This document shows, piece after piece, positions 4,451 through 59,620 of a stretch of 64,000 nucleotides of DNA. Positions within the stretch are counted from its first letter, which is position 1. Each line of letters starts with the position of its first letter. The position numbers and the translations under genes were made by a program. Source of the DNA: Candidatus Micrarchaeota archaeon (GTDB taxonomy: Archaea > Iainarchaeota > Iainarchaeia > JAADDC01). Location of the stretch: positions 20,364-84,363 of the forward strand of contig JALVAT010000013.1 in NCBI GenBank assembly GCA_027011045.1, written 5' to 3'. A model generated the notes under the pieces. It did not search any database. It had not been told where the DNA came from and worked only from the letters and a program-made list of their open reading frames with translations.

Positions 4451-5077
4451 TTGCGACAAAATACGGAGGGATATATGATGAAGGGCCAACAGGCTATCGG
4501 TACGCTGTTTATCTTTATAGCGCTGGTGATTACAGCAGCGCTTGCGGCCTTTGTTCTTGTGAGCACGACCAACACGCTGCAGTCCAAGTCCGTGGCAGTG
4601 GCCAACCAGACCATGAACAAGGCCACCATGGGCTTCTCAGCGCGCCAGGTCGAGGGCATCTCCCACGCCGACAACCAGATCAGCGAGATCCTCATGGGTG
4701 TGGAGCTCGCACCCGGTTCTGGCGTGATTGACCTCAGCGACGCCAAGATCATCTGGACCGCCAACGGCGGTAAGGTCTACGGCGAGTATGAGTACAACAG
4801 CACCCTCGTTACCTTTGACGCCACGACGCTGTCCTTCAGCCCAGCGCTCCAGGCCGGCCAGTACTACGTTGTTCAGAACAGGACCTCTGGCGACGACGAC
4901 AAGTTCCTCGAGTCTGGTGAGGTCTACGTCCTCGGCTTCCAGCTCCCACAGCCCCTGCTGAAGGGCCAGGACTGGTCCATCACCATGCGCGCGCCCTACA
5001 CACAGGACCTCTACATCACGGGCTACGCGCCTCCTGTGATCGAGGCCAACACCATCGTGACCCTGAAGTCCGCGTAA
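4451..5077 (+). CDS. flaB: Archaellin (second copy)
   Basis: N-terminus MMKGQQAIGTLFIFIALVITAALAAFVL is a class III signal plus hydrophobic helix; about 200 aa. Confidence 0.75.
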   Translation: MRQNTEGYMMKGQQAIGTLFIFIALVITAALAAFVLVSTTNTLQSKSVAVANQTMNKATMGFSARQVEGISHADNQISEILMGVELAPGSGVIDLSDAKIIWTANGGKVYGEYEYNSTLVTFDATTLSFSPALQAGQYYVVQNRTSGDDDKFLESGEVYVLGFQLPQPLLKGQDWSITMRAPYTQDLYITGYAPPVIEANTIVTLKSA

Positions 5078-5856: not shown

Positions 5857-5916
5857 GGATCAGCACTGCTATCTCTCATCATCGCTCCGCTCAGACGAAA
5901 CCTCCCTCATCACCCA
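5857..5916 (-). ncRNA. C/D-box sRNA (2'-O-methylation guide)
   Basis: Minus strand reads GUGAUGA, 12-nt guide, CUGA, spacer, GAUGAUGA, 12-nt guide, CUGA; A/T-rich TATA-like stretch about 25 nt upstream. Confidence 0.7.
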
Positions 5917-7690: not shown

Positions 7691-8515
7691 ATGGCAACGG
7701 CGGTCGAGCATTCGGGAGAGAAGATTATCATCGATCCAAGTGCAGCACTTGGGCCAAGAAGATACGGGCTGCCGCCCCACGAGCTGGAGGAGCTCGCACT
7801 CCGGCTCGCGCTAAAGAGGATTGACCGGGAACTTCAGGACGCCGATTACGTTATCTTCACGCACTACCACTGGGACCACTACAGGCCGGAGGCAGACCTG
7901 GAGGGAAAGGTTGTATACATGAAGGATCCGGAGAACTACATCAATGCGAGCCAGAGAAAGCGGGCAGCGCCGATAACAAAGCGGGAAGGCCTTGACCTGC
8001 GCATTGCAGATGGGCTGAAGGTAGATGAATTGGATATGGAGTTTTCACCACCCCTGCCGCACGGACCGGAAGGAACAAGGCTTGGATACGTCATCGGGGT
8101 AAGAATAGGGGATCTAGTCTTTACATCGGATGTGGAGGGGCCGGTAAGCGAGGCTGCGACACGGTGGATCATCGAAATGAACCCAAGAACGCTGATACTG
8201 GACGGCCCCCTTACGTACATGCTCGGATACAGATTTTCGCAGGAATCGCTGCAGCGCGCCGTGGAAAACCTCCTGGGGATCGCGGAGAGCACAAACGTGA
8301 CGGAAATTATAGCGGAGCACCATTTAGTCCGGGATATCAACGCCCACAAGAACTTCCCCGTGGGTGAAAGACTCGCTGAAATCGGAGTGGAGTATAGGAA
8401 CGCCGCGGAAGCCCAAGAGCTGGAACCGCTCCTTCTGGAACCTTGGCGCCGTATGCTGTGGAAGGGTGAAAAAGAGGTTGACCCAGATATAGTAAGGAGG
8501 GTGTACGATGCGTGA
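7691..8515 (+). CDS. Metallo-beta-lactamase-fold hydrolase
   Basis: VIFTHYHWDHY (HxHxDH motif) about 60 aa from a KIIIDPSAA strand; stop overlaps the reverse gyrase start (ATGCGTGA). Confidence 0.6.
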   Translation: MATAVEHSGEKIIIDPSAALGPRRYGLPPHELEELALRLALKRIDRELQDADYVIFTHYHWDHYRPEADLEGKVVYMKDPENYINASQRKRAAPITKREGLDLRIADGLKVDELDMEFSPPLPHGPEGTRLGYVIGVRIGDLVFTSDVEGPVSEAATRWIIEMNPRTLILDGPLTYMLGYRFSQESLQRAVENLLGIAESTNVTEIIAEHHLVRDINAHKNFPVGERLAEIGVEYRNAAEAQELEPLLLEPWRRMLWKGEKEVDPDIVRRVYDA

Positions 8516-11500
8516 AAGGGCGCTCTTCACAAAGCTCTGTCCAAACTGCGAGGGGGAAATAAACGATATCCGCCTCTCGCTCAAGAACCCGTGCAGCACC
8601 TGTTTGGAAACAGCGGTCGTAGAGAACACATACGAACAGCTTGTAGAGGCGATTTACCGGGCATTAAAGGAGGGGGACAAGCTAAGGAAGTACCAGATGA
8701 TCCACGACGTAATCCATCACCTCACAGAATTCAACGAATTTTTCGAAAGGGCCGTGGGATCCAGGCTATGGAGCGCGCAGAGGACGTGGGCCAAGCGTGT
8801 GTTCTTGGGGAGGTCCTTCTCCATCGTGGCGCCAACGGGCATTGGAAAGACGGCCTTCGGATCCGTTATGGGGATATACCTAGCGAAGCACGGCGAAAAG
8901 GCCTATTTCATCCAGCCCACGACTACGTTACTCATGCAGACAGCGGAAAGGCTGCGGGACTATGCAAAGAGGGCGGGAGTTGACGTCAGGATCGTGGAGA
9001 TCCACGGCAAGATGAAGAAGGGCGAGAAGGAAGAAGCACAGCGGGCCATTGAAGCAGGGGAATTTGATATCCTCGTAACGACCTCGCAGTACCTCACGCG
9101 AAACTTCGACACCCTCGCAAGGCACAGGTTCGACTTCATCTTTGTCGACGACGTTGACGCATTCCTCCGTGCGTCCAAAAACATAGATCGCGTGCTCCAA
9201 CTCCTGGGATTCACGGAGGAGATAATATCGGCTGCATACGAGCTGATACGCGCAAAGTTCACCCTCCTCTTCCGGAGCAACGACCAGCAGCTAAGAAAAC
9301 GCATCGAAGAGCTGCAGGAGAAGATAGATCGGTTCAAGGAAAACAACAGGGTAGGTCAGCTCATCGTTGCATCCGCCACGGGGCGAGCAAGGGGCATCCG
9401 TGTCAAGCTCTTCCGGGAGCTCCTGGACTTTGAGATCGGGAGCACAAGGGCAAACCTGAGGAACATCATCAACGCGTACACGGAGGAAAGGAACTGGAAG
9501 GAGCAGGTGCTGTCAGCGGTGACGGCGCTGGGCAAGGGCGGGCTCGTGTTCGTCCCGACGGATAGGGGCAGGGAGTTCGCGGAGCAGGTTGCACAGTATC
9601 TGCAGAGTTCTGGAGTAAAAGCAATGCTCGCAACGTCCGAAAACGCAGATCAGGTCCTTAAAGCGCTGGAAGCTGGAGACGTGGACGTAGCGGTAGGTGT
9701 TGCCGCGTACTACGGCGTGCTGGTGCGCGGAATTGACCTGCCCGAGCAGATAAGGTATACCATCTTCGTGGGGGTCCCAAAGTTCAAGTTCTCACTACGC
9801 TTCGACAACGCACCGCCCGGAAGGCTGGCGTATCTCCTGGACGTGGTGGCGGACTACGACGAGGACATTGCGAGGGAGGCGAGATCCCTTGCAAACAGGA
9901 TTAGGAGGAACCCGCGCGACGAAGATGTAGAACGGGCAAAGGAAATCCTGCGGAGGGCCTTTGAGAACAGGGAACTGGTGGAACGCATAAAGCAGAGCAA
10001 GGAAATCGCTGTGGTCGAGGAAAATGGCGAACTAAAGATCCTCATAGCAGACGTACGCACATACATCCAGGCAACGGGAAGAACATCGCGCATGTACGCC
10101 GGGGGAATTACGCCGGGGTTCTCTTTAGTCCTCGTGGACGACGAACGCGTCTTCGATCAGCTTAGAAGGTACATGCGCATAGTACTCGATGAGGAGTTTA
10201 AACCGCTGGAGGAAATAGATCTCGCCGAAATACGGCGCTGGCTAGAGGAGGGCAGAAGAAAGAGGGAAAAGCTGGCGGAAGATCCCGTTAAAACAGTTCT
10301 ATTCATCGTTGAATCGCCAAACAAGGCGAGAACAATTGCACACTTCTTCGGAACACCTTCATCATACCGCATAGGCAACATCCGGGGCTACGAGGTGGCC
10401 ACGGGCAAGTACATCCTTAACATCGTGGCTACCAGGGGGCACATGTTCGACCTAGTCACGGACCGCGGATTCCACGGGGTGCTCGTGGAGGAGGACGCGC
10501 ACTGGTTCGTACCGGTATACACGACGATCAAGCTCTGCCGCCGCTGCGGCGTACAGACGGTGGAGGATAAATGCCCAGTTTGTGGATCGGATGAGTATCT
10601 GGACGACGCAATATGGCGTGTTAACGCTCTGCGCCTCTTTGCCCTTGAAAGCGACTTCGTGATCATTGGAACGGACCCCGATCGAGAGGGAGAGAAAATA
10701 GCCTGGGATACAGCCCTCGCAATAAGCCCCTACGTCCCCACCATTGTCAGGGCGGAGTTCCACGAGGTAACGCGAAGTGCCATTCTGCGGGCCCTGGAGG
10801 AAACGAGAAACATCGACGAAAACATAGTAAACGCCCAGATCGTCCGCAGGGTGGAGGACCGCTGGATTGGATTCGAGCTGTCGCGGAAACTCTGGGAAGC
10901 ATTCGGCATAAAGATCCTGTCTGCGGGGAGAGTACAGACGCCGGTACTTGGATGGATCATAAGGCGCTATGAGGAGCACAAGGACAGCGTACGCATATTC
11001 CTCGACGTGAAAACAGAAACTGGTAGAGTTGTGTTCGAAACGCCGTTCAAGAGTGTCAAGGAGCTTCGATCAGCGGAAATACCAAGCACGTTAGAGGTGC
11101 GCGTGGAAAAAAGGGAGGAAACGGAGCTCGGGGCGCCGGCACCATTCACAACGGACACGATGCTCAGGGAGGCAGGAGAACGGATGGGCATAGGTGCAAA
11201 GGATATCATGCAGCTCGCGCAGGACCTATTCGAAGCGGGTCTCATCACATACCACAGGACCGACTCTACGCACGTGTCCGCCGCAGGGCGCGCCCTCGCA
11301 AGGGAGTACATATCGGAACGCTTCGGAGAGGAGTACTACAGGGGCCGCAGCTGGGGTGAAGAGGGTGCCCACGAATGTATTCGCCCCACAAAGCCCTTGG
11401 ATACGGACACGCTGATCCGCATGGTGCGCGAGGGCGAAATTAACGTTCAGGGGCTCCGAAAGAAGCACCACCGTCTATACTCCATCATATTCGAACGCTT

Positions 11501-12017
11501 TATGGCTTCCCAGATGCGGAATCCCACGGTAGAGAGGGCAGAAGTCGTCTACAGGCTGGGGGAGTTTGAAAAGAGGGAAACAGCAATAACAAGAATCGTG
11601 AAGGACGGGTGGAACCTCGTGAGGCCCGTGCGCACGCGAGAAGTACGGGAAGGGGCCTTCAGGGTCGTGGAGATTCGGAACTTTAAGGCGGCAACGGTCC
11701 CGCTATACACACAGGCAGACGTAGTGGCCCTAATGAAGGAGCGAGGAATAGGAAGACCCAGCACATACGCAACAATCATACAGAAGCTCCTGGATAGGAA
11801 GTACGTGCGCGAATCCCAGCAGAAGAAGCGGCTGTACCCAACCCAGCTTGGAATACGCGTATACAACTTCCTTTCCGAGAACTACGAAGATCTCGTATCG
11901 GAGGAGCGGACGAGGATTCTCGAGGAGACCCTTGACGCCATTGCCGCAGGGGAAAGGGATTATCAGGACGCGCTGCGCGAGATGTACCTCGAAATAAGGG
12001 GGGCCGTAGGTGAGTAG
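8508..12017 (+). CDS. rgy: Reverse gyrase (single-chain helicase-like plus topoisomerase IA fusion)
   Basis: 1169 aa; N-terminal Zn finger (CPNCEGE...CSTC), Walker A APTGIGKT, DEAD-like DDVD, Toprim and topo IA C-terminal half. Confidence 0.9.
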   Translation: MRERALFTKLCPNCEGEINDIRLSLKNPCSTCLETAVVENTYEQLVEAIYRALKEGDKLRKYQMIHDVIHHLTEFNEFFERAVGSRLWSAQRTWAKRVFLGRSFSIVAPTGIGKTAFGSVMGIYLAKHGEKAYFIQPTTTLLMQTAERLRDYAKRAGVDVRIVEIHGKMKKGEKEEAQRAIEAGEFDILVTTSQYLTRNFDTLARHRFDFIFVDDVDAFLRASKNIDRVLQLLGFTEEIISAAYELIRAKFTLLFRSNDQQLRKRIEELQEKIDRFKENNRVGQLIVASATGRARGIRVKLFRELLDFEIGSTRANLRNIINAYTEERNWKEQVLSAVTALGKGGLVFVPTDRGREFAEQVAQYLQSSGVKAMLATSENADQVLKALEAGDVDVAVGVAAYYGVLVRGIDLPEQIRYTIFVGVPKFKFSLRFDNAPPGRLAYLLDVVADYDEDIAREARSLANRIRRNPRDEDVERAKEILRRAFENRELVERIKQSKEIAVVEENGELKILIADVRTYIQATGRTSRMYAGGITPGFSLVLVDDERVFDQLRRYMRIVLDEEFKPLEEIDLAEIRRWLEEGRRKREKLAEDPVKTVLFIVESPNKARTIAHFFGTPSSYRIGNIRGYEVATGKYILNIVATRGHMFDLVTDRGFHGVLVEEDAHWFVPVYTTIKLCRRCGVQTVEDKCPVCGSDEYLDDAIWRVNALRLFALESDFVIIGTDPDREGEKIAWDTALAISPYVPTIVRAEFHEVTRSAILRALEETRNIDENIVNAQIVRRVEDRWIGFELSRKLWEAFGIKILSAGRVQTPVLGWIIRRYEEHKDSVRIFLDVKTETGRVVFETPFKSVKELRSAEIPSTLEVRVEKREETELGAPAPFTTDTMLREAGERMGIGAKDIMQLAQDLFEAGLITYHRTDSTHVSAAGRALAREYISERFGEEYYRGRSWGEEGAHECIRPTKPLDTDTLIRMVREGEINVQGLRKKHHRLYSIIFERFMASQMRNPTVERAEVVYRLGEFEKRETAITRIVKDGWNLVRPVRTREVREGAFRVVEIRNFKAATVPLYTQADVVALMKERGIGRPSTYATIIQKLLDRKYVRESQQKKRLYPTQLGIRVYNFLSENYEDLVSEERTRILEETLDAIAAGERDYQDALREMYLEIRGAVGE

Positions 12018-17705: not shown

Positions 17706-17814
17706 CCGGGGGTAGCTCAACCTGGTAGAGCGGCCGGCTGTAGTCTGGCTTGGGCCCAACCTGCAACAACAGGCAGAAACCGGCAGGTTGGGGGTTCAAA
17801 TCCCTCCCCCCGGA
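17706..17814 (+). tRNA. tRNA-Tyr(GTA): tRNA-Tyr (anticodon GTA) with 35-nt intron at the canonical 37/38 position (17744..17778)
   Basis: Acceptor CCGGGGG/CCCCCGG, anticodon stem GCCGG/CCGGC interrupted by a 35-nt insert after CUGUAG. Confidence 0.8.
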
Positions 17815-17845
17815 CTCCTTTTCAAAACATTGTGGCGAATTCTTA

Positions 17846-17901
17846 TGCGATGATGACGAGGTATTACCCTGACCGGTGATGAAAAAAGCCTCAGCTGAGC
17901 A
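17846..17901 (+). ncRNA. C/D-box sRNA
   Basis: GAUGAUGA, 12-nt guide, CUGA, spacer ccg, GUGAUGA, 12-nt guide, CUGA, directly downstream of tRNA-Tyr. Confidence 0.65.
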
Positions 17902-17999: not shown

Positions 18000-19394
18000 G
18001 TGGAAACGGTGGTTCTAAGAATATACGACACACTTAGTCGTCAGAAGAAAGAGTTCAAAACGATTGAGCCGAATCACGTCAAGATGTACGTCTGTGGACC
18101 CACCACGTACGACCACTCGCACATAGGACACATGAGAACCTTTGCGTTCTTCGACGTGGTCCGCAGGTGGCTAGAGTACAGGGGCTACCGCGTCACCATG
18201 CTCATAAACATAACAGACATCGACGACAAGACCATACGACGGGCAAACGAGGAGGGGGTCTCCTTTGCAGAGATTGCTGATCGCTACATGTTCGACTTCA
18301 TAAGGGCGCTCAGATCCTTCAACATCCGGCTACCCAACATCATGCCAAAGGCCACTAGCGTCATAGCGGACATGTACTACGTCATACAGACGCTCATAGA
18401 CAAGGGATATGCGTACGTGGCCGAAGACGGCGTGTACTTCGACGTCTCCAAGTTTGAGGACTATGGGAAGCTGTCGGGCCAGAAGAGGGAGTTCCTCCTT
18501 ACGGGAGTGCGCATAGAGCCGTCGCCGTACAAGAGAAACGCGGGTGACTTCGCACTTTGGAAGCGCAGAAAGGAGGGAGAGCCCTTCTGGCATGCACCGT
18601 GGATGGATGGAAGGCCCGGCTGGCACATAGAATGTTCCACGATGATCTGGAAGTACTTGGGAGAGCAGATTGACATCCACGGCGGAGGTACTGACCTGAT
18701 CTTCCCGCACCACGAGAACGAAATAGCGCAGAGCGAAGCGTTCACAGGGAAAAAGCCCTTCGTCCGCTACTGGATGCACGTGGGCATGCTAAAGATCGAG
18801 GGCGAGAAGATGAGCAAGAGCCTGGGCAACTTCATCACCTGGTTCAAGGCCCTCGAAATGGCGCCAGCAGCGGCGTGGCGTCTCTACTACGCAACGAACG
18901 CATATCGCCAGCCCATGAACATCACGGAGCAGGGAATACACCAGGCATACGAAACGGTAAAGAGGATCTACAGAGCACAGCAGGCGCTAAGGCAGGCCAT
19001 AGCAGATAACGAGCTAGGAGATGAGAGCGTAGACGTAACGGAATACATGAAGCGCTTCGAGGACAGAATGGACGACGACTTTGACACACCGGGAGCAGTT
19101 GCAGCGATGATGGACTTCATCAACGCATTCCAAGGCAAGATATACCGGCTCAACGAGGAATCCGCAAGGACCGTCCTGAAGACGCTGGAAACAATGATGT
19201 ATATACTAGGACTGCCAGAGGTAAGCGTGGACGAGCGCACGGCAAGGATCATCGACGAGATAGTGAGGATACGGAGCGAAATGCGCAGGGAGAAGAGGTA
19301 CGACGTTGCGGACAGGATTCGCGAGGAACTCGCGGCTGCAGGCATAGAGCTGCACGATGGGAAGGAAGGAACCCGCTGGTTTGTTCTCCCGTGA
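18000..19394 (+). CDS. cysS: Cysteinyl-tRNA synthetase
   Basis: HIGH motif (HIGH at aa ~41) and KMSKS motif, class I aaRS, 464 aa. Confidence 0.9.
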
Positions 19395-19425
19395 GGTTTT
19401 TAACCCCACAATTCCTTTTTCTTCC

Positions 19426-20217
19426 ATGGAGTTCGCTGAGGCAAAGGAGCACGGAGATATAACGATTGTTGGGATACCCTACGAGGGCATCCTCTCCGGG
19501 CTGCCGGGAATGCGGGAGGGGCCCCATTTCATACGCAAAGCATCCTACCTCCTGGAGTCCTACGTACCCGCCCTGGACATAGATCTCTCAGACGCAGCGT
19601 TTTCGGACATGGGGAACGTGGAACTCTTCGGGGCGCCGGAAAAGATCACGGAGGAAGTCTCCGAAGTTGTGGCGGGCATAAAGTATCCGGTTATACTCGG
19701 AGGAGACCACACAGTAACCATTGGCGTCGTAAAGGACCTCATACAGCGGTACGGACGGCTCAAGGTGCTATATTTCGACGCACACTGGGATCTCAGGGAG
19801 AGCTACGGCGAGTCCACCCATTCCCACGCGTGCACGGCTGCAAGGATTGTAGACCTGGGCGCAGAGGTAATCTTTTTCGGCATTCGATCGGGCAGCAAGG
19901 AGGAATGGGAACGGGGCAAAGGCTTCGAGCTCTACCCGGACGAAGGCATGCCGTGGCCCACGCGCTTCGGGGATGAGCCCGTCTACATAACAGTGGACAT
20001 GGACGTCTTCGACCCCGCCTTCGCCCCAGGGGTGGGAACACCTGAGCCAGCGGGGATAACACCCAAGGCATTCCTGAACTGGCTGTACGAACTGGATGCG
20101 AACATCGTAGGGTTCGACGTGGTTGAGACGAACCCCATGGTAGAGGATACGATCACCCCCGTCCTAGCCGCGCGAATAGTGAGGGACTTGATAGCAAAGA
20201 TGGCCGCGCGCAGGTGA
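19426..20217 (+). CDS. speB: Agmatinase / arginase-family ureohydrolase
   Basis: GGDHTVT, DAHWD and VDMDVFDP metal-binding motifs. Confidence 0.75.
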   Translation: MEFAEAKEHGDITIVGIPYEGILSGLPGMREGPHFIRKASYLLESYVPALDIDLSDAAFSDMGNVELFGAPEKITEEVSEVVAGIKYPVILGGDHTVTIGVVKDLIQRYGRLKVLYFDAHWDLRESYGESTHSHACTAARIVDLGAEVIFFGIRSGSKEEWERGKGFELYPDEGMPWPTRFGDEPVYITVDMDVFDPAFAPGVGTPEPAGITPKAFLNWLYELDANIVGFDVVETNPMVEDTITPVLAARIVRDLIAKMAARR

Positions 20218-20221
20218 TCCG

Positions 20222-20794
20222 ATGCTCCGCAGGGTCAAAGAGTGGGGGAGAAGGAAGCTCATAGAACACCGGCTGAGGGAATACCCGCACATAAGGGAGC
20301 ACGTGTATCCAAGGGTGGGGGAAGAGCACGCAAAGAACCTCGAGCAGGTGCTCAGGGAGCACGGACCGTGGATCGAAAATACGCTCTCCAGCCTTGCGCA
20401 GAGGGAGCGTGTCGACGCAGTGGAAAAAATAGCGCAGATCGTCAGCGGATACGTGCGGCAGAATCCGAGGCTCATCTCAAAGTTAAGACCGATCCTTCCA
20501 AGGGACGAGAGAGAACTCGCGCGCATCCTCGCCCTGGTAGAACCGCGGAAGGACCACCGAGAAATGGTGGGTCAGATCGTTCTGTACAGCCAGATCGGGG
20601 ACGAAGCCAAGAGGACAGAGATGAGAAAACTCCTCGACGTTCTCACTCCGGAGGAGAAGAAATTGCTGTGGATAAAAATCCACAACCACGCAGTCCTCAG
20701 CCTGCCACGCACCGCAATAAAATCCGTACTCAACGAAATAGCGCACAAACGCCCGGACCTGAGGGATACGGTGGAGCGCATATTATCGGATTAG
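20222..20794 (+). CDS. Hypothetical alpha-helical protein
   Basis: ORF only; no recognisable motif. Confidence 0.4.
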   Translation: MLRRVKEWGRRKLIEHRLREYPHIREHVYPRVGEEHAKNLEQVLREHGPWIENTLSSLAQRERVDAVEKIAQIVSGYVRQNPRLISKLRPILPRDERELARILALVEPRKDHREMVGQIVLYSQIGDEAKRTEMRKLLDVLTPEEKKLLWIKIHNHAVLSLPRTAIKSVLNEIAHKRPDLRDTVERILSD

Positions 20795-20942
20795 GGGAAC
20801 ACAGGCGTCTCGCAAGGAATATTAACCCACGGCACAATATGGATCCGTGCGTCGGGTGGGCCACGCCGACCTAAGGCTGTGCACGGGACCAGTACCACAT
20901 TACAAACAAATCGTGCAGCTTGGCGGGGCGTTGGTAGAATAT

Positions 20943-21908
20943 ATGGTGGACGAGCTGGGGCCCGCGGAAACGCTACGCCGATTCTCGCACCCCATTTGGT
21001 TCGAGGCAATGGCATCCGCCATGGGGTTCGAGTGGCAGTACTCCGGGGCTACAACAGTCACGATCCGAGCTATTGCGGAGGCAATACGCGGTAGGGAGGA
21101 CGAACTGGGCATACGCGTGGTGGGTGGCAAGGGGGAGCAGGCAAGAACGGCGGACAAGATCCCCGAAGAGTTAAGAGACCCAGATATCGTCACGACGAAG
21201 GTGGACTCCGCCCTGGTGCAGGATGGGTACCAAATATACTTCCACTCGATTCTCTACACGGATTCGGGGGAGTGGGTGGTCATAAACCAAGGGATGAACG
21301 TGGGGGAGCGTTTAGCACGGAGGTACCACTGGTCCTGGGACGAAGGGCGTTTTCTAAACGATGCAGAGGCGATAGCCGGAAAACGGGAAAAGCGGGTGCT
21401 CGATCTCCAAGCAAAATCGAGCAAAGAAGCCAGAAAAACAATATTGGACATTGTGCGCGACGAATCACCAAGGAAAATAGTATACCTTATCCTATCGCTT
21501 CGCCGCAGGCCAGGTCAGAGGACACTTGCTGACTACGGCATAGGCGGCACCGTAAAGGTAGAGTACATGCCCTTCGAATTCCGAATACCGCGGCGCATAA
21601 ACGAGGAGGCGCTACGCACAGCGAAAAACGCCGAAAGCTTCATCGAGCTCATAAAGACGCCGGGGATCGGCCCATCAACGGTAAGGGGCCTTGCATTCGT
21701 GGCATCCCTTGTGTACGGGGCGCCGGTCTCGTGGAAGGATCCCGTCAAGTATACCTACGCCTTCGGAACAAAGGCGGGAAAGCCGTGGATGGTGGAACGC
21801 GAGGAGATGACAAAGGCGGCTGCATTTCTCAGGAGTGCCATAGAAGAAGCAAAGTTGGGGGATAAAACAAAGAAAAGGGCCTTGGAGAGGCTCTCAAGGC
21901 TTGTTTAG
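20943..21908 (+). CDS. Conserved hypothetical protein (possibly DUF763-like)
   Basis: ORF with mixed alpha/beta composition; family assignment from memory only. Confidence 0.4.
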   Translation: MVDELGPAETLRRFSHPIWFEAMASAMGFEWQYSGATTVTIRAIAEAIRGREDELGIRVVGGKGEQARTADKIPEELRDPDIVTTKVDSALVQDGYQIYFHSILYTDSGEWVVINQGMNVGERLARRYHWSWDEGRFLNDAEAIAGKREKRVLDLQAKSSKEARKTILDIVRDESPRKIVYLILSLRRRPGQRTLADYGIGGTVKVEYMPFEFRIPRRINEEALRTAKNAESFIELIKTPGIGPSTVRGLAFVASLVYGAPVSWKDPVKYTYAFGTKAGKPWMVEREEMTKAAAFLRSAIEEAKLGDKTKKRALERLSRLV

Positions 21909-37559: not shown

Positions 37560-38201
37560 ATGGCAAGAGTTCTGCTCATCGCTTACGAAGGACGGGACAA
37601 GGAGACAGGCGAGGTTTTTGACCGCGTCGAGGAGGAGGAACCATATCCCGTCATACTCGGGGAGGATTCCCTTCTCCCTGGGCTTGCCGAGGCCCTAGAG
37701 GAGATGGGTGAGGGCGAGGAACGAGAGATCGAGCTCCCACCCGAAAAGGCATTCGGCGAGCGAAAGAAGGAACTCGTGGTGCTCATTCCACTCAAGGAGT
37801 TCAAGAAACGAGGAATAACCCCTGTTCCGGGCCTCGTCATAGAGGCCGATGGCCGCAAGGGAAGGGTGGTCTCCGTATCGGGAGGCAGAGTTCAGGTAGA
37901 CTTCAACCCCGAGCTTGCAGGCAGAACCGTTGTATACAAGGTCAAGGTGCTGGCAGAGCTCAAGGAAGTCAAGGAAGTGGCCGAGGCTCTCTTCCGCAGG
38001 TACTTCCGGACCAAGCTGGACAGCGTCGACTTCAAGGACGGCGTGCTCGAAGTGGTATATACGCCGACGAGCGCCAAGGACATTCAGCTCCAGAAGCTGC
38101 TCTTCGTGAGCACCATGCTCAAGGCGTTCCCAGAGATAAAGGAAGTGCGGATTGTGGAGCGCTACGTGCGCCGCGAGGAAAAGGAGAGCGAGGAGCAGTA
38201 A
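37560..38201 (+). CDS. FKBP-type peptidyl-prolyl cis-trans isomerase (long archaeal SlyD-like type)
   Basis: FKBP core with insert-in-flap, ~213 aa. Confidence 0.75.
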   Translation: MARVLLIAYEGRDKETGEVFDRVEEEEPYPVILGEDSLLPGLAEALEEMGEGEEREIELPPEKAFGERKKELVVLIPLKEFKKRGITPVPGLVIEADGRKGRVVSVSGGRVQVDFNPELAGRTVVYKVKVLAELKEVKEVAEALFRRYFRTKLDSVDFKDGVLEVVYTPTSAKDIQLQKLLFVSTMLKAFPEIKEVRIVERYVRREEKESEEQ

Positions 38202-38202
38202 A

Positions 38203-38260
38203 GGGTCAGGGGGTAACAGAGTCATCACGGCCTCAGCGAGGTCGTAGACTCATCATCCCC
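38203..38260 (-). ncRNA. C/D-box sRNA; D-guide complementary to 23S rRNA 59125..59136
   Basis: Minus strand: GGAUGAUGA, 13-nt guide, CUGA, ggcc, GUGAUGA, cucuguuacccc, CUGA; TTTATTTT TATA box 20-28 nt upstream. Confidence 0.75.
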
Positions 38261-38285
38261 CTCTTCTTTGAACCGATGAAAATAA

Positions 38286-38346
38286 AGGTCAGCTACCCCA
38301 GGGAGCATCATCGCCGCGCTCAGGGGTGCTGTCTCTCATCATCCCG
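38286..38346 (-). ncRNA. C/D-box sRNA (tandem with the previous one)
   Basis: Minus strand: GGAUGAUGA, 12-nt guide, CUGA, gcgcgg, CGAUGAUG, 12-nt guide, CUGA; cttttatg TATA-like about 22 nt upstream. Confidence 0.7.
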
Positions 38347-38375
38347 CTTCTAAGAAGGCAGAGGTGCATAAAAGC

Positions 38376-38630
38376 ATGGCGCGCTTAAGGGTGCGGGCAC
38401 ACCCCGGAGCAAAGCGAAACGAGATACGAGTAGAGGGAGATACGATCCACATCTGGGTAACAGCCCCCGCAAGGGAGGGTAAAGCAAACAGGGCGATCAT
38501 AGAGCTGCTCGCAAGGGAAATGGGGGTAAAGAAATCGGAAGTAAGCATCGTACGGGGCGAGCACGGGAGAGAAAAAATTATAGAAGTCCCCGACGACGCA
38601 GCCAGTCGTCTATTGGGCCGGACTGCTTGA
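38376..38630 (+). CDS. DUF167 / YggU-family small protein
   Basis: ~85 aa MARLRVRAHPGAKRNEIRVEGDTIHIWVTAPAREGKAN pattern. Confidence 0.55.
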   Translation: MARLRVRAHPGAKRNEIRVEGDTIHIWVTAPAREGKANRAIIELLAREMGVKKSEVSIVRGEHGREKIIEVPDDAASRLLGRTA

Positions 38631-56049: not shown

Positions 56050-56144
56050 TTTTTAGGAGCCGGGGTGCCCGAGTGGTCTAAGGGGTCGGACTTGAGATCC
56101 GATGGGCCGACTGGCCCGCAGGGGTTCAAATCCCCTCCCCGGCG
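56050..56144 (+). tRNA. tRNA-Ser(TGA): tRNA-Ser (anticodon TGA), class II with long variable arm
   Basis: Acceptor GCCGGGG/CCCCGGC, anticodon stem UCGGA/UCCGA, loop CUUGAGA, 16-nt variable arm. Confidence 0.85.
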
Positions 56145-56173
56145 TGCACCCCTTCTACCAAACGCAAGCAAGA

Positions 56174-56252
56174 TCAGCCAAGGCTGAAGTCATCATCGGT
56201 CAGACGCGCCTTACTTCATCACACCTCAGCATTGGACTCATTCATCATCCCG
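56174..56252 (-). ncRNA. C/D-box sRNA with an abutting extra C-guide-D half-unit (56174..56197)
   Basis: Minus strand: GGAUGAUGA, 12 nt, CUGA, ggu, GUGAUGA, 12 nt, CUGA, cc, GAUGAUGA, 12 nt, CUGA; AAATTTATTT TATA box about 22 nt upstream. Confidence 0.65.
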
Positions 56253-56297
56253 TAGAACCGTAACATGGTAAGAAATAAATTTTGTAATAGAAGTTTG

Positions 56298-56354
56298 AGG
56301 TCAGGGGGTAACAGATTCATCACCCGTCAGGGGAACGACCGACTCATCATCCCA
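56298..56354 (-). ncRNA. C/D-box sRNA, paralogue of 38203..38260 (same D-guide cucuguuacccc)
   Basis: Minus strand: GGAUGAUGA, 13 nt, CUGA, cgggu, GUGAUGA, ucuguuaccccc, CUGA; ATATTTTTT TATA-like about 25 nt upstream. Confidence 0.7.
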
Positions 56355-56556
56355 GTTTCTTTAAGAGGGGTGCAAAAAATATGCTTAACCCCTGCCAAGA
56401 TGGGTGCAGATTCCCGCTTAGGTACCTTTAAAAACGCTACTATCCTACCATACTACCGGAGCCGAGGGGTGACGGTGGCTGATTTTAACCCCGCGGCGCA
56501 GGTGGGTATCACACTCACACTGCTTTCAAGATGCACCTCGTGAGCTCACGCTCGCG

Positions 56557-56575
56557 GGGGAAGGGCAGACGGCGG
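56557..56575 (+). other. 5' strand of the 23S processing helix (pairs with 59623..59644)
   Basis: gggaagggcagacggcg upstream versus cgtttgccgtctgcctttctcc downstream: 10 contiguous bp (GGCAGACGGC/GCCGUCUGCC) plus flanking partial pairing. Confidence 0.5.
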
Positions 56576-56576
56576 G

Positions 56577-59620
<3,044 letters not shown>

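Follow-up and report, generated by a model that had tools for sequence, protein, structure and literature searches.

Predicted tandem box C/D sRNA genes in a DPANN-labelled archaeal metagenome contig, one with a guide complementary to the peptidyl-transferase loop of 23S rRNA

The C/D sRNAs of Pyrococcus and the Thermococcales (Rfam RF00095 and the sR families) are RNAs of 55-61 nt that combine RUGAUGA and CUGA boxes with internal D' and C' boxes, 12-13-nt guides and a short G-C terminal stem in a double-guide design. The two units described here are alike in all of these respects and, being of ordinary archaeal design, are further examples of a well-known RNA class. They differ in scoring below the Rfam gathering score, in their guides and targets, and in their uncultured, DPANN-labelled host. 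By the established mechanism of the class, each sRNA would assemble with L7Ae, Nop5 and fibrillarin, with L7Ae bound to the C/D kink-turn and the C'/D' kink-loop. The guides, 12-13 nt long, would then pair with their target RNAs, and fibrillarin would 2'-O-methylate the target nucleotide that faces the fifth guide base counted 5' from D or D'.

Guides directed against the 23S rRNA block CCGGGGAUAACA of the domain V central loop are carried by M. maripaludis sR101, M. kandleri sR7 and I. hospitalis sR414, and the list of sites for seven archaeal species holds none at the U2723 equivalent (E. coli U2449) (Dennis et al. 2015, PMC4644070 supplement). A literature search on U2449 and archaeal methylation returned nothing relevant. 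In E. coli, U2449 is the dihydrouridine D2449 of the domain V central loop (PMC9176250); this is the same universally conserved uridine, but there the base is reduced by a protein enzyme without a guide RNA, whereas ribose methylation is predicted here. Gene duplication, guide drift and orphan guides have been described for archaeal sRNAs (PMC4644070, PMC7994747). Among hyperthermophilic DPANN archaea, C/D sRNAs are reported for Nanoarchaeum equitans (Randau 2012, PMC3491384), which resembles the present host in having unlinked rRNA genes and sRNA genes near tRNA genes. For DPANN lineages other than Nanoarchaeum, the literature search found no paper on C/D sRNAs.

The window (the whole stretch of DNA analysed, 64,000 nt) belongs to a metagenome contig of 126 kb (ENA ERZ27262679 k141_185027), and its closest relatives are metagenome-assembled genomes (MAGs) labelled Candidatus Iainarchaeum, Diapherotrites or Micrarchaeota (DPANN). 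A 1169-aa protein with reverse-gyrase domain architecture (zf_Rg, helicase, Toprim, topoisomerase) is encoded on the plus strand at ~8508..12017 (18161..21670 of the contig extension L014), which suggests a hyperthermophile, though the relatives are labelled DPANN (Iainarchaeota). Comparisons were made with L003 (GCA_054474175.1), whose FKBP-type prolyl isomerase is 94% identical, with L004-L006 (FKBP 73-79% identical), and with five Iainarchaeota-labelled MAG loci (L007-L011, GCA_964486025.1 among the MAGs) that were recovered with the diphthamide-synthesis (Dph2) gene near a paralogous sRNA, designated P (Dph2 54-57% identical to that of the window).

The two units, A and B, are arranged head to tail on the minus strand (38346..38203) and fill the greater part of a 174-nt gap separating two plus-strand genes; their elements are listed in Table 1. 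Minus-strand ORFs that overlap the units are antisense to the flanking plus-strand genes and were not considered credible as genes. All elements of the two C-D'-C'-D units proposed in the initial annotation were located on this strand at the coordinates given there; the C' heptamer of unit A, however, was found by alignment of orthologues to be AUGAUGC, not CGAUGAUG. Unit lengths (58-61 nt) are typical of the class (~50-65 nt for archaeal C/D sRNAs), the D'-C' spacers fall within the 3-9 nt of a kink-loop, and the terminal stems of the relatives' sRNAs read GGGGG...CCCC.

Table 1. Coordinates of the sRNA units, flanking genes, putative promoter elements and predicted 23S rRNA targets (window numbering)
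Feature	Position	Strand	Details
Unit A, box C/D sRNA gene (predicted)	38286..38346	minus	Sequence, regex layout, Rfam, orthologues in L003 and L007-L011
Unit A C box	38342..38336	minus	AUGAUGA
Unit A D' guide	38335..38324	minus	GAGACAGCACCC, 12 nt
Unit A D' box	38323..38320	minus	CUGA
Unit A D'-C' spacer		minus	GCGCGGCG, 8 nt
Unit A C' box	38311..38305	minus	AUGAUGC
Unit A D guide	38304..38293	minus	UCCCUGGGGUAG, 12 nt
Unit A D box	38292..38289	minus	CUGA
Unit A ends		minus	5' GCGGG, 3' CCU; GG...CC terminal pairing
Unit B, box C/D sRNA gene (predicted)	38203..38260	minus	Sequence, regex layout, Rfam, invariant guide core
Unit B C box	38256..38250	minus	AUGAUGA
Unit B D' guide	38249..38237	minus	GUCUACGACCUCG, 13 nt
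Unit B D' box	38236..38233	minus	CUGA
Unit B D'-C' spacer		minus	GGCC, 4 nt
Unit B C' box	38228..38222	minus	GUGAUGA
Unit B D guide	38221..38210	minus	CUCUGUUACCCC, 12 nt
Unit B D box	38209..38206	minus	CUGA
Unit B ends		minus	5' GGGG, 3' CCC; terminal GGG/CCC stem
A/T-rich TATA-like box	38367..38374	minus	CTTTTATG; upstream of unit A; conserved in L003; function putative
A/T box	38279..38286	minus	TTTATTTT; between units A and B; reads TTTATGAT in L003
FKBP-type prolyl isomerase gene	37560..38201	plus	One flank of the 174-nt gap
PF1765-like gene	38376..38630	plus	Other flank of the 174-nt gap
Paralogous sRNA P	56298..56354	minus	Regex layout; syntenic orthologues beside tRNA-Ser in L007-L011
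P D' guide	56343..56331	minus	GUCGGUCGUUCCC
P D guide	56316..56305	minus	AUCUGUUACCCC; 11/12 vs unit B D guide
Archaeal 23S rRNA	56607..59598	plus	
23S target of unit B and P D guides	59125..59136	plus	Predicted 2'-O-methylated base U59129
Candidate 23S targets of unit A guides	59101..59128	plus	Best 23S matches, flanking the unit B site
Perfect targets that would assign the unit A guides and the unit B D' guide			CUACCCCAGGGAG, GGGUGCUGUCUC, CGAGGUCGUAGAC

The full C-D'-C'-D layout was searched as a regular expression (RUGAUGA, 10-14 nt, CUGA, 2-10 nt, NUGAUGN, 10-14 nt, CUGA). Seven full units were found in the window and none in 300 dinucleotide-preserving shuffles, and a chance origin of the layout is thereby excluded. 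Half units numbered 12 in the window against a shuffle mean of 0.25, the C'-guide-D string occurred twice (expected, 0), and a loosened layout pattern recovered the identical set of units. The generic archaeal C/D model of Rfam (snoPyro_CD, RF00095) aligned end to end with exactly 38286..38346 and 38203..38260. The scores of unit A (29.0 bits, E 5e-4) and unit B (29.4 bits, E 4e-4) are below the gathering score of 45, while orthologues of unit A in L007 (49.3 bits) and L008 (46.3 bits) are above it. Across orthologues the boxes and guide cores are conserved and the spacers have diverged, as is expected under purifying selection. Units A and B are thus very probably genes for archaeal box C/D sRNAs of ~58-61 nt, predicted from these sequence features to be methylation guides, and the identity given to them in the initial annotation is upheld by box layout, Rfam matches at the same coordinates, orthologues above the gathering score and conservation.

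A different origin of the motifs, by chance, as a repeat without RNA function or as RNAs that mainly regulate the flanking plus-strand genes by cis-antisense action, was judged highly improbable. The units are antisense to any FKBP-to-PF1765-like read-through transcript, and the stretch in which the PF1765-like gene probably has its promoter is partly covered by unit A. Against this, none of the 300 shuffles produced a full unit, and the strict pattern gave no full unit in unrelated metagenome loci that contain rRNA (517 kb). In addition, conservation tracks the C/D boxes and guide cores, and relatives have the same RNAs at another locus with other neighbours, where the copies retain box conservation. 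By tblastn with approximate query sequences, a weak test, no match to L7Ae or fibrillarin was obtained in the window and ~18 kb of contig (~84 kb of the genome). The two genes add C/D guide RNAs for a poorly studied, uncultured and probably hyperthermophilic lineage; the current picture of C/D RNPs is unchanged by them, and what they offer is annotation and a concrete site open to testing.

This site is defined by the D guide of unit B. The 23S segment 59125..59136 reads GGGGTAACAGAG / GGGGUAACAGAG and is the exact complement of CUCUGUUACCCC, with 12 of 12 positions in Watson-Crick pairs, in agreement with the perfect complementarity first claimed for it. The fifth guide base 5' of the D box is an A and lies opposite U59129, the fifth target base by the N+5 arithmetic applied earlier. 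When the guide was shuffled, 3 of 2000 shuffled guides (0.15%) did equally well anywhere in the 23S rRNA. The target 11-mer has no second sense-strand copy within the window, and the predicted energy of the duplex is -21.7 kcal/mol. U59129 is accordingly predicted, on complementarity and guide register, to be ribose-methylated through the unit B D guide, a step that the unit B RNP would carry out.

In the Rfam archaeal LSU alignment, the target stretch was aligned to the consensus CCcgGGGAUAACaGag. Since U2449 is the sole U in the aligned consensus block, U59129 corresponds to E. coli U2449; the guide duplex spans E. coli 2445-2456, A2451 and C2452 included. The neighbouring G59128 makes position 2448 a G in this 23S rRNA, where the archaeal consensus is a strongly conserved A, and the unit B D guide has a C opposite it. 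The guide is thus suited to its own rRNA and not to a generic archaeal sequence. The string containing G2448, TACCCCGGGGGTAACAGAG, was found in at least 119 metagenome contigs, so that G2448 is neither an assembly error nor unique; all six loci sampled from these are archaeal LSU genes, and none of the six has a 16S gene nearby.

The guides of sR101, sR7 and sR414 (e.g. UGUUAUCCCCGG-CUGA) and the unit B D guide share the 23S block CCGGGGAUAACA. The former are in a register 3 nt further 5' on the target, with G2720 in the site alignment, calculated to be E. coli G2446, in place of U2449, and have U opposite position 2448 where the unit B guide has C. SnoRNAs guide methylation of the homologous stretch in yeast 25S rRNA as well, but at nucleotides different from U2449: Gm2815 (snR38) and Gm2791/Gm2793 (snR48), which we take, by an assumed constant offset, to be E. 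coli 2446, 2422 and 2424. The predicted Um2449 is a modestly new detail, outside the sites predicted for seven archaea in Dennis et al. 2015. Another is that a guide follows the lineage-specific A2448G within rRNA sequence that is among the most highly conserved, and this match to G2448 goes beyond the initial annotation.

In its peptidyl-transferase loop, the 23S rRNA of the window departs from the Rfam archaeal consensus at the strongly conserved positions 59128, 59177, 59179 and 59180 (G/A2448, G/A2497, U/C2499 and C/U2500 in the numbering used here). Most of the at least 119 G2448 23S fragments have CUUCCU ahead of CGAUGUC (U at 2497), and the CUGCUC found at this place in the window was common to just one near-identical contig (L079) among the G2448 fragments. 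When unit B (38203..38261) was folded alone, a hairpin of -27.4 kcal/mol was obtained (z -4.6; 0 of 200 shuffles as stable) in which 5' GGGGG and the C box are paired with the D guide; paralogue P has no such structure. According to this model, the hairpin would sequester the D guide unless proteins remodel the fold.

The history of the pair was examined through the relatives, and this comparison is the most decisive evidence for the two genes. Both units are kept at the FKBP locus of L003, and divergence from it is 3.3% for unit A, 6.7% for unit B and 28% for the spacer between them, with substitutions in the guides confined to the box-proximal position 12 or 13. At the FKBP locus of L004-L006, the neighbours are different, there is no intergenic gap and the sRNAs are absent. 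In each of L007-L011, by comparison, a C/D sRNA cluster lies beside tRNA-Ser, and in all five an A-like sRNA (D guide NCUCUGGGGUAR) is directly followed by an sRNA with the D guide UUCUGUUACCCC. Tandem linkage is kept in six genomes. Because the five relatives have the same arrangement, the tandem of an A-like sRNA and an sRNA with the UCUGUUACCCC guide was taken to be ancestral to the clade. This conserved ancestral unit, which extends the initial annotation, is a further new detail, namely two sRNA genes still linked after moving between loci.

Two alignments were compiled from these copies. The first (A3; eight copies from seven genomes) shows no variation in the C and D boxes or in the 11-nt guide core UCUGUUACCCC; the D' box, the C' box and guide position 12 are variable, with degenerate D' (CGGA or CCGA) and C' (AUGACGA or AUGAAGA) boxes in the relatives. 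In the second (A4; the unit A family in seven genomes), the boxes and the CUGGGGUA core are kept and four unrelated D' guides occur. Exact scans of genome and metagenome collections for TGATGANNCTGTTAYCCCCTGA, in which a canonical UGAUGA C' was required, gave no match. This zero is due to the canonical C' box that was demanded, and the idea of a guide unique to this strain was rejected, given that relatives found through synteny have the same guide behind a variant C' box (AUGACGA/AUGAAGA).

The paralogue at 56298..56354 that had been reported along with the pair was also recovered; its D guide matches that of unit B at 11 of 12 positions, and its D' guide is a different one. P and the five relatives have the D' guide core UCGGNCGUUCC in common, and the D' guide of unit B differs from it. 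From these sequence relationships, P would be a solo copy left at the ancestral locus beside tRNA-Ser, and the A-B pair a copy that was moved or duplicated into the gap between the FKBP and PF1765-like genes, where unit B would have gained its different D' guide. In L009, an extra GCUGUUACCCC-CUGA-CCCC (4636..4693, minus) lies between the P-like and Q-like sRNAs and has no recognisable upstream C, D' or C' box; this copy may be a decayed duplicate.

Unit B itself may likewise be a redundant and partly decaying duplicate, with P as the ancestral functional copy, the D guide of B working and its D' guide orphan; this is a tentative reading that we hold to be rather doubtful. It is favoured by the fact that the locus and the D' guide core of the relatives belong to P, not B. 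The D' guide of unit B matches 23S rRNA and tRNA over no more than 7-8 bp (94% of shuffled guides do equally well on 23S rRNA) and is self-complementary with its own D' box and spacer (CCUCgcuGAGG). From this sequence evidence it looks like an orphan, and orphan guides are common (28% in Pyrobaculum; PMC7994747). However, unit B has intact boxes in L003, where its D' guide is altered at position 13 only, and the orphan call refers to the 23S rRNA and the six tRNAs of the window.

Each unit had initially been assigned a TATA box of its own. The boxes concerned are CTTTTATG, ~25-32 nt upstream of the C box of unit A, and TTTATTTT, ~23-30 nt upstream of that of unit B. In 19 distinct regions upstream of sRNAs, taken from the window and its relatives, the A/T fraction reached 0.79-0.89 at -31..-26 from the C box, versus a background of ~0.4, and both boxes fall at the position of this peak. 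For transcripts that begin a few bases ahead of the C box, the peak would be at the place expected of an archaeal TATA box. Between the D box of the A-like sRNA and the next C box lie 32-33 nt in the window and in L003 and L007, and 16-19 nt in L008-L011; the 16-19-nt spacers contain no counterpart of the TTTATTTT box. As these short spacers leave no space for a second promoter, the ancestral pair was probably transcribed as one unit. In the window, TTTATTTT may serve unit B as a TATA-like box, unit A as an oligo-T terminator, or do both. The assignment therefore holds for unit A, for which the A/T peak of the 19 regions points to a promoter of its own, and is only plausible for unit B, which may be transcribed by read-through from unit A or from its own promoter at TTTATTTT.

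Matching of the guides to rRNA and tRNA, which the initial annotation had proposed as a check, was successful for the D guide of unit B. For the unit A D', unit A D and unit B D' guides, no perfect target was found in the 23S rRNA of the window or its six tRNAs. The D' guide of unit A forms nine Watson-Crick pairs with 23S 59101..59109 (N+5 = G59104), and its D guide forms a 12-bp run (nine Watson-Crick and three G-U pairs) on 59117..59128 (N+5 = C59121). G59104 is presumably E. coli 2424, which would match the site that we take to be yeast Gm2793. The A-like D guides of all relatives have their best 23S match at 59117 as well, and the D' guides of the relatives' A-like sRNAs gave nothing convincing on the 23S rRNA of the window. 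Together the D-guide sites of A and B make up a palindrome (GUUACCCC/GGGGUAAC, one site per arm) that is perfect because of G2448 and is predicted to fold locally into a 7-bp hairpin.

These matches bear on an alternative in which the pair is a two-RNA module acting on a single 23S segment. In such a module, the 5' arm GUUACCCCGGGG would be bound by the A-like D guide and the 3' arm GGGGUAACAGAG by the B/P D guide; C59121 (E. coli 2441) would be methylated via A-like D, U2449 via B/P D and G59104 via unit A D', and methylation of both arms would be combined with prevention of a non-native hairpin of the segment during assembly. We regard such a module as unlikely. Both guides of unit A do find their best 23S match no more than 25 nt from the unit B site, and their predicted duplex energies (-18.0 kcal/mol for D', -21.7 kcal/mol for D) were counted as equal to that of the perfect unit B duplex. 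Within 45 nt of U59129, the shuffled-guide p was 0.01 (D') and 0.0025 (D), this region having been picked after the matches had been seen. The shared best match of the relatives' A-like D guides, the tandem linkage in six genomes and the local hairpin are further points in its favour, and a chaperone role of archaeal sRNAs has already been proposed (PMC4644070). On the other hand, A-like pairing requires two to three G-U pairs, and over the whole 23S rRNA p is only ~0.08 (0.085 for the D' guide, 0.08 for the D guide). In addition, the U at position 8 of the A-like D guide is conserved in seven genomes and points to a target with A at that place (YUACCCCAGRG), a sequence that is absent from the 23S rRNA of the window. 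In its most specific form, as a dedicated peptidyl-transferase-loop module for G2448 23S rRNA that methylates C2441 and U2449 (and G2424 here) and blocks misfolding at high temperature, the proposal is a speculative one that we consider distinctly improbable.

The unit A D guide could plausibly be directed instead at a variable helix in the 5' domain of 16S rRNA; the region was variable between the two unrelated DPANN 16S genes that were compared. The D guide of sRNA Q (56174..56252, minus) appears to fit the GCUACAAUGG region of what we take to be the archaeal 16S sequence. Contiguity of the unit A D and sRNA Q D targets in one RNA (both with YUAC), judged against the same presumed 16S sequence, was set aside as coincidence.

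The 23S rRNA gene itself has no 16S gene beside it, and the contig extensions L013 and L014 gave none either. In the region 56059..59598, tRNA-Ser and a minus-strand sRNA cluster lie ahead of the 23S gene, and the conserved tRNA-Ser/sRNA cluster of the five relatives has no 23S gene within 10 kb. Elsewhere in the window, a 109-nt tRNA, presumably with an intron, was detected by Rfam and missed by ARAGORN, and a C/D sRNA lies 35 nt after it (17850..17898, plus), the two together spanning 17706..17898. The guides of this sRNA match 23S rRNA 18 nt apart, one through 11 Watson-Crick pairs at 58624..58634 (N+5 = A58627) and the other through eight at 58605..58612 (N+5 = G58609). Another C/D sRNA (5860..5913, minus) precedes tRNA-Glu on that strand by ~155 nt, and the window contains no target for either of its guides. 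Of the six sRNA genes in the window, four adjoin tRNA or rRNA genes. In sRNA Q, a third guide unit is joined to the D box (CCG-AUGAUGA-CUUCAGCCUUGG-CUGA). L007 and L009 have both Q guides (xUUCRGCCUUGK and GUAGGGCGCG) in one sRNA in the opposite order, which suggests guide-module shuffling or circular permutation.
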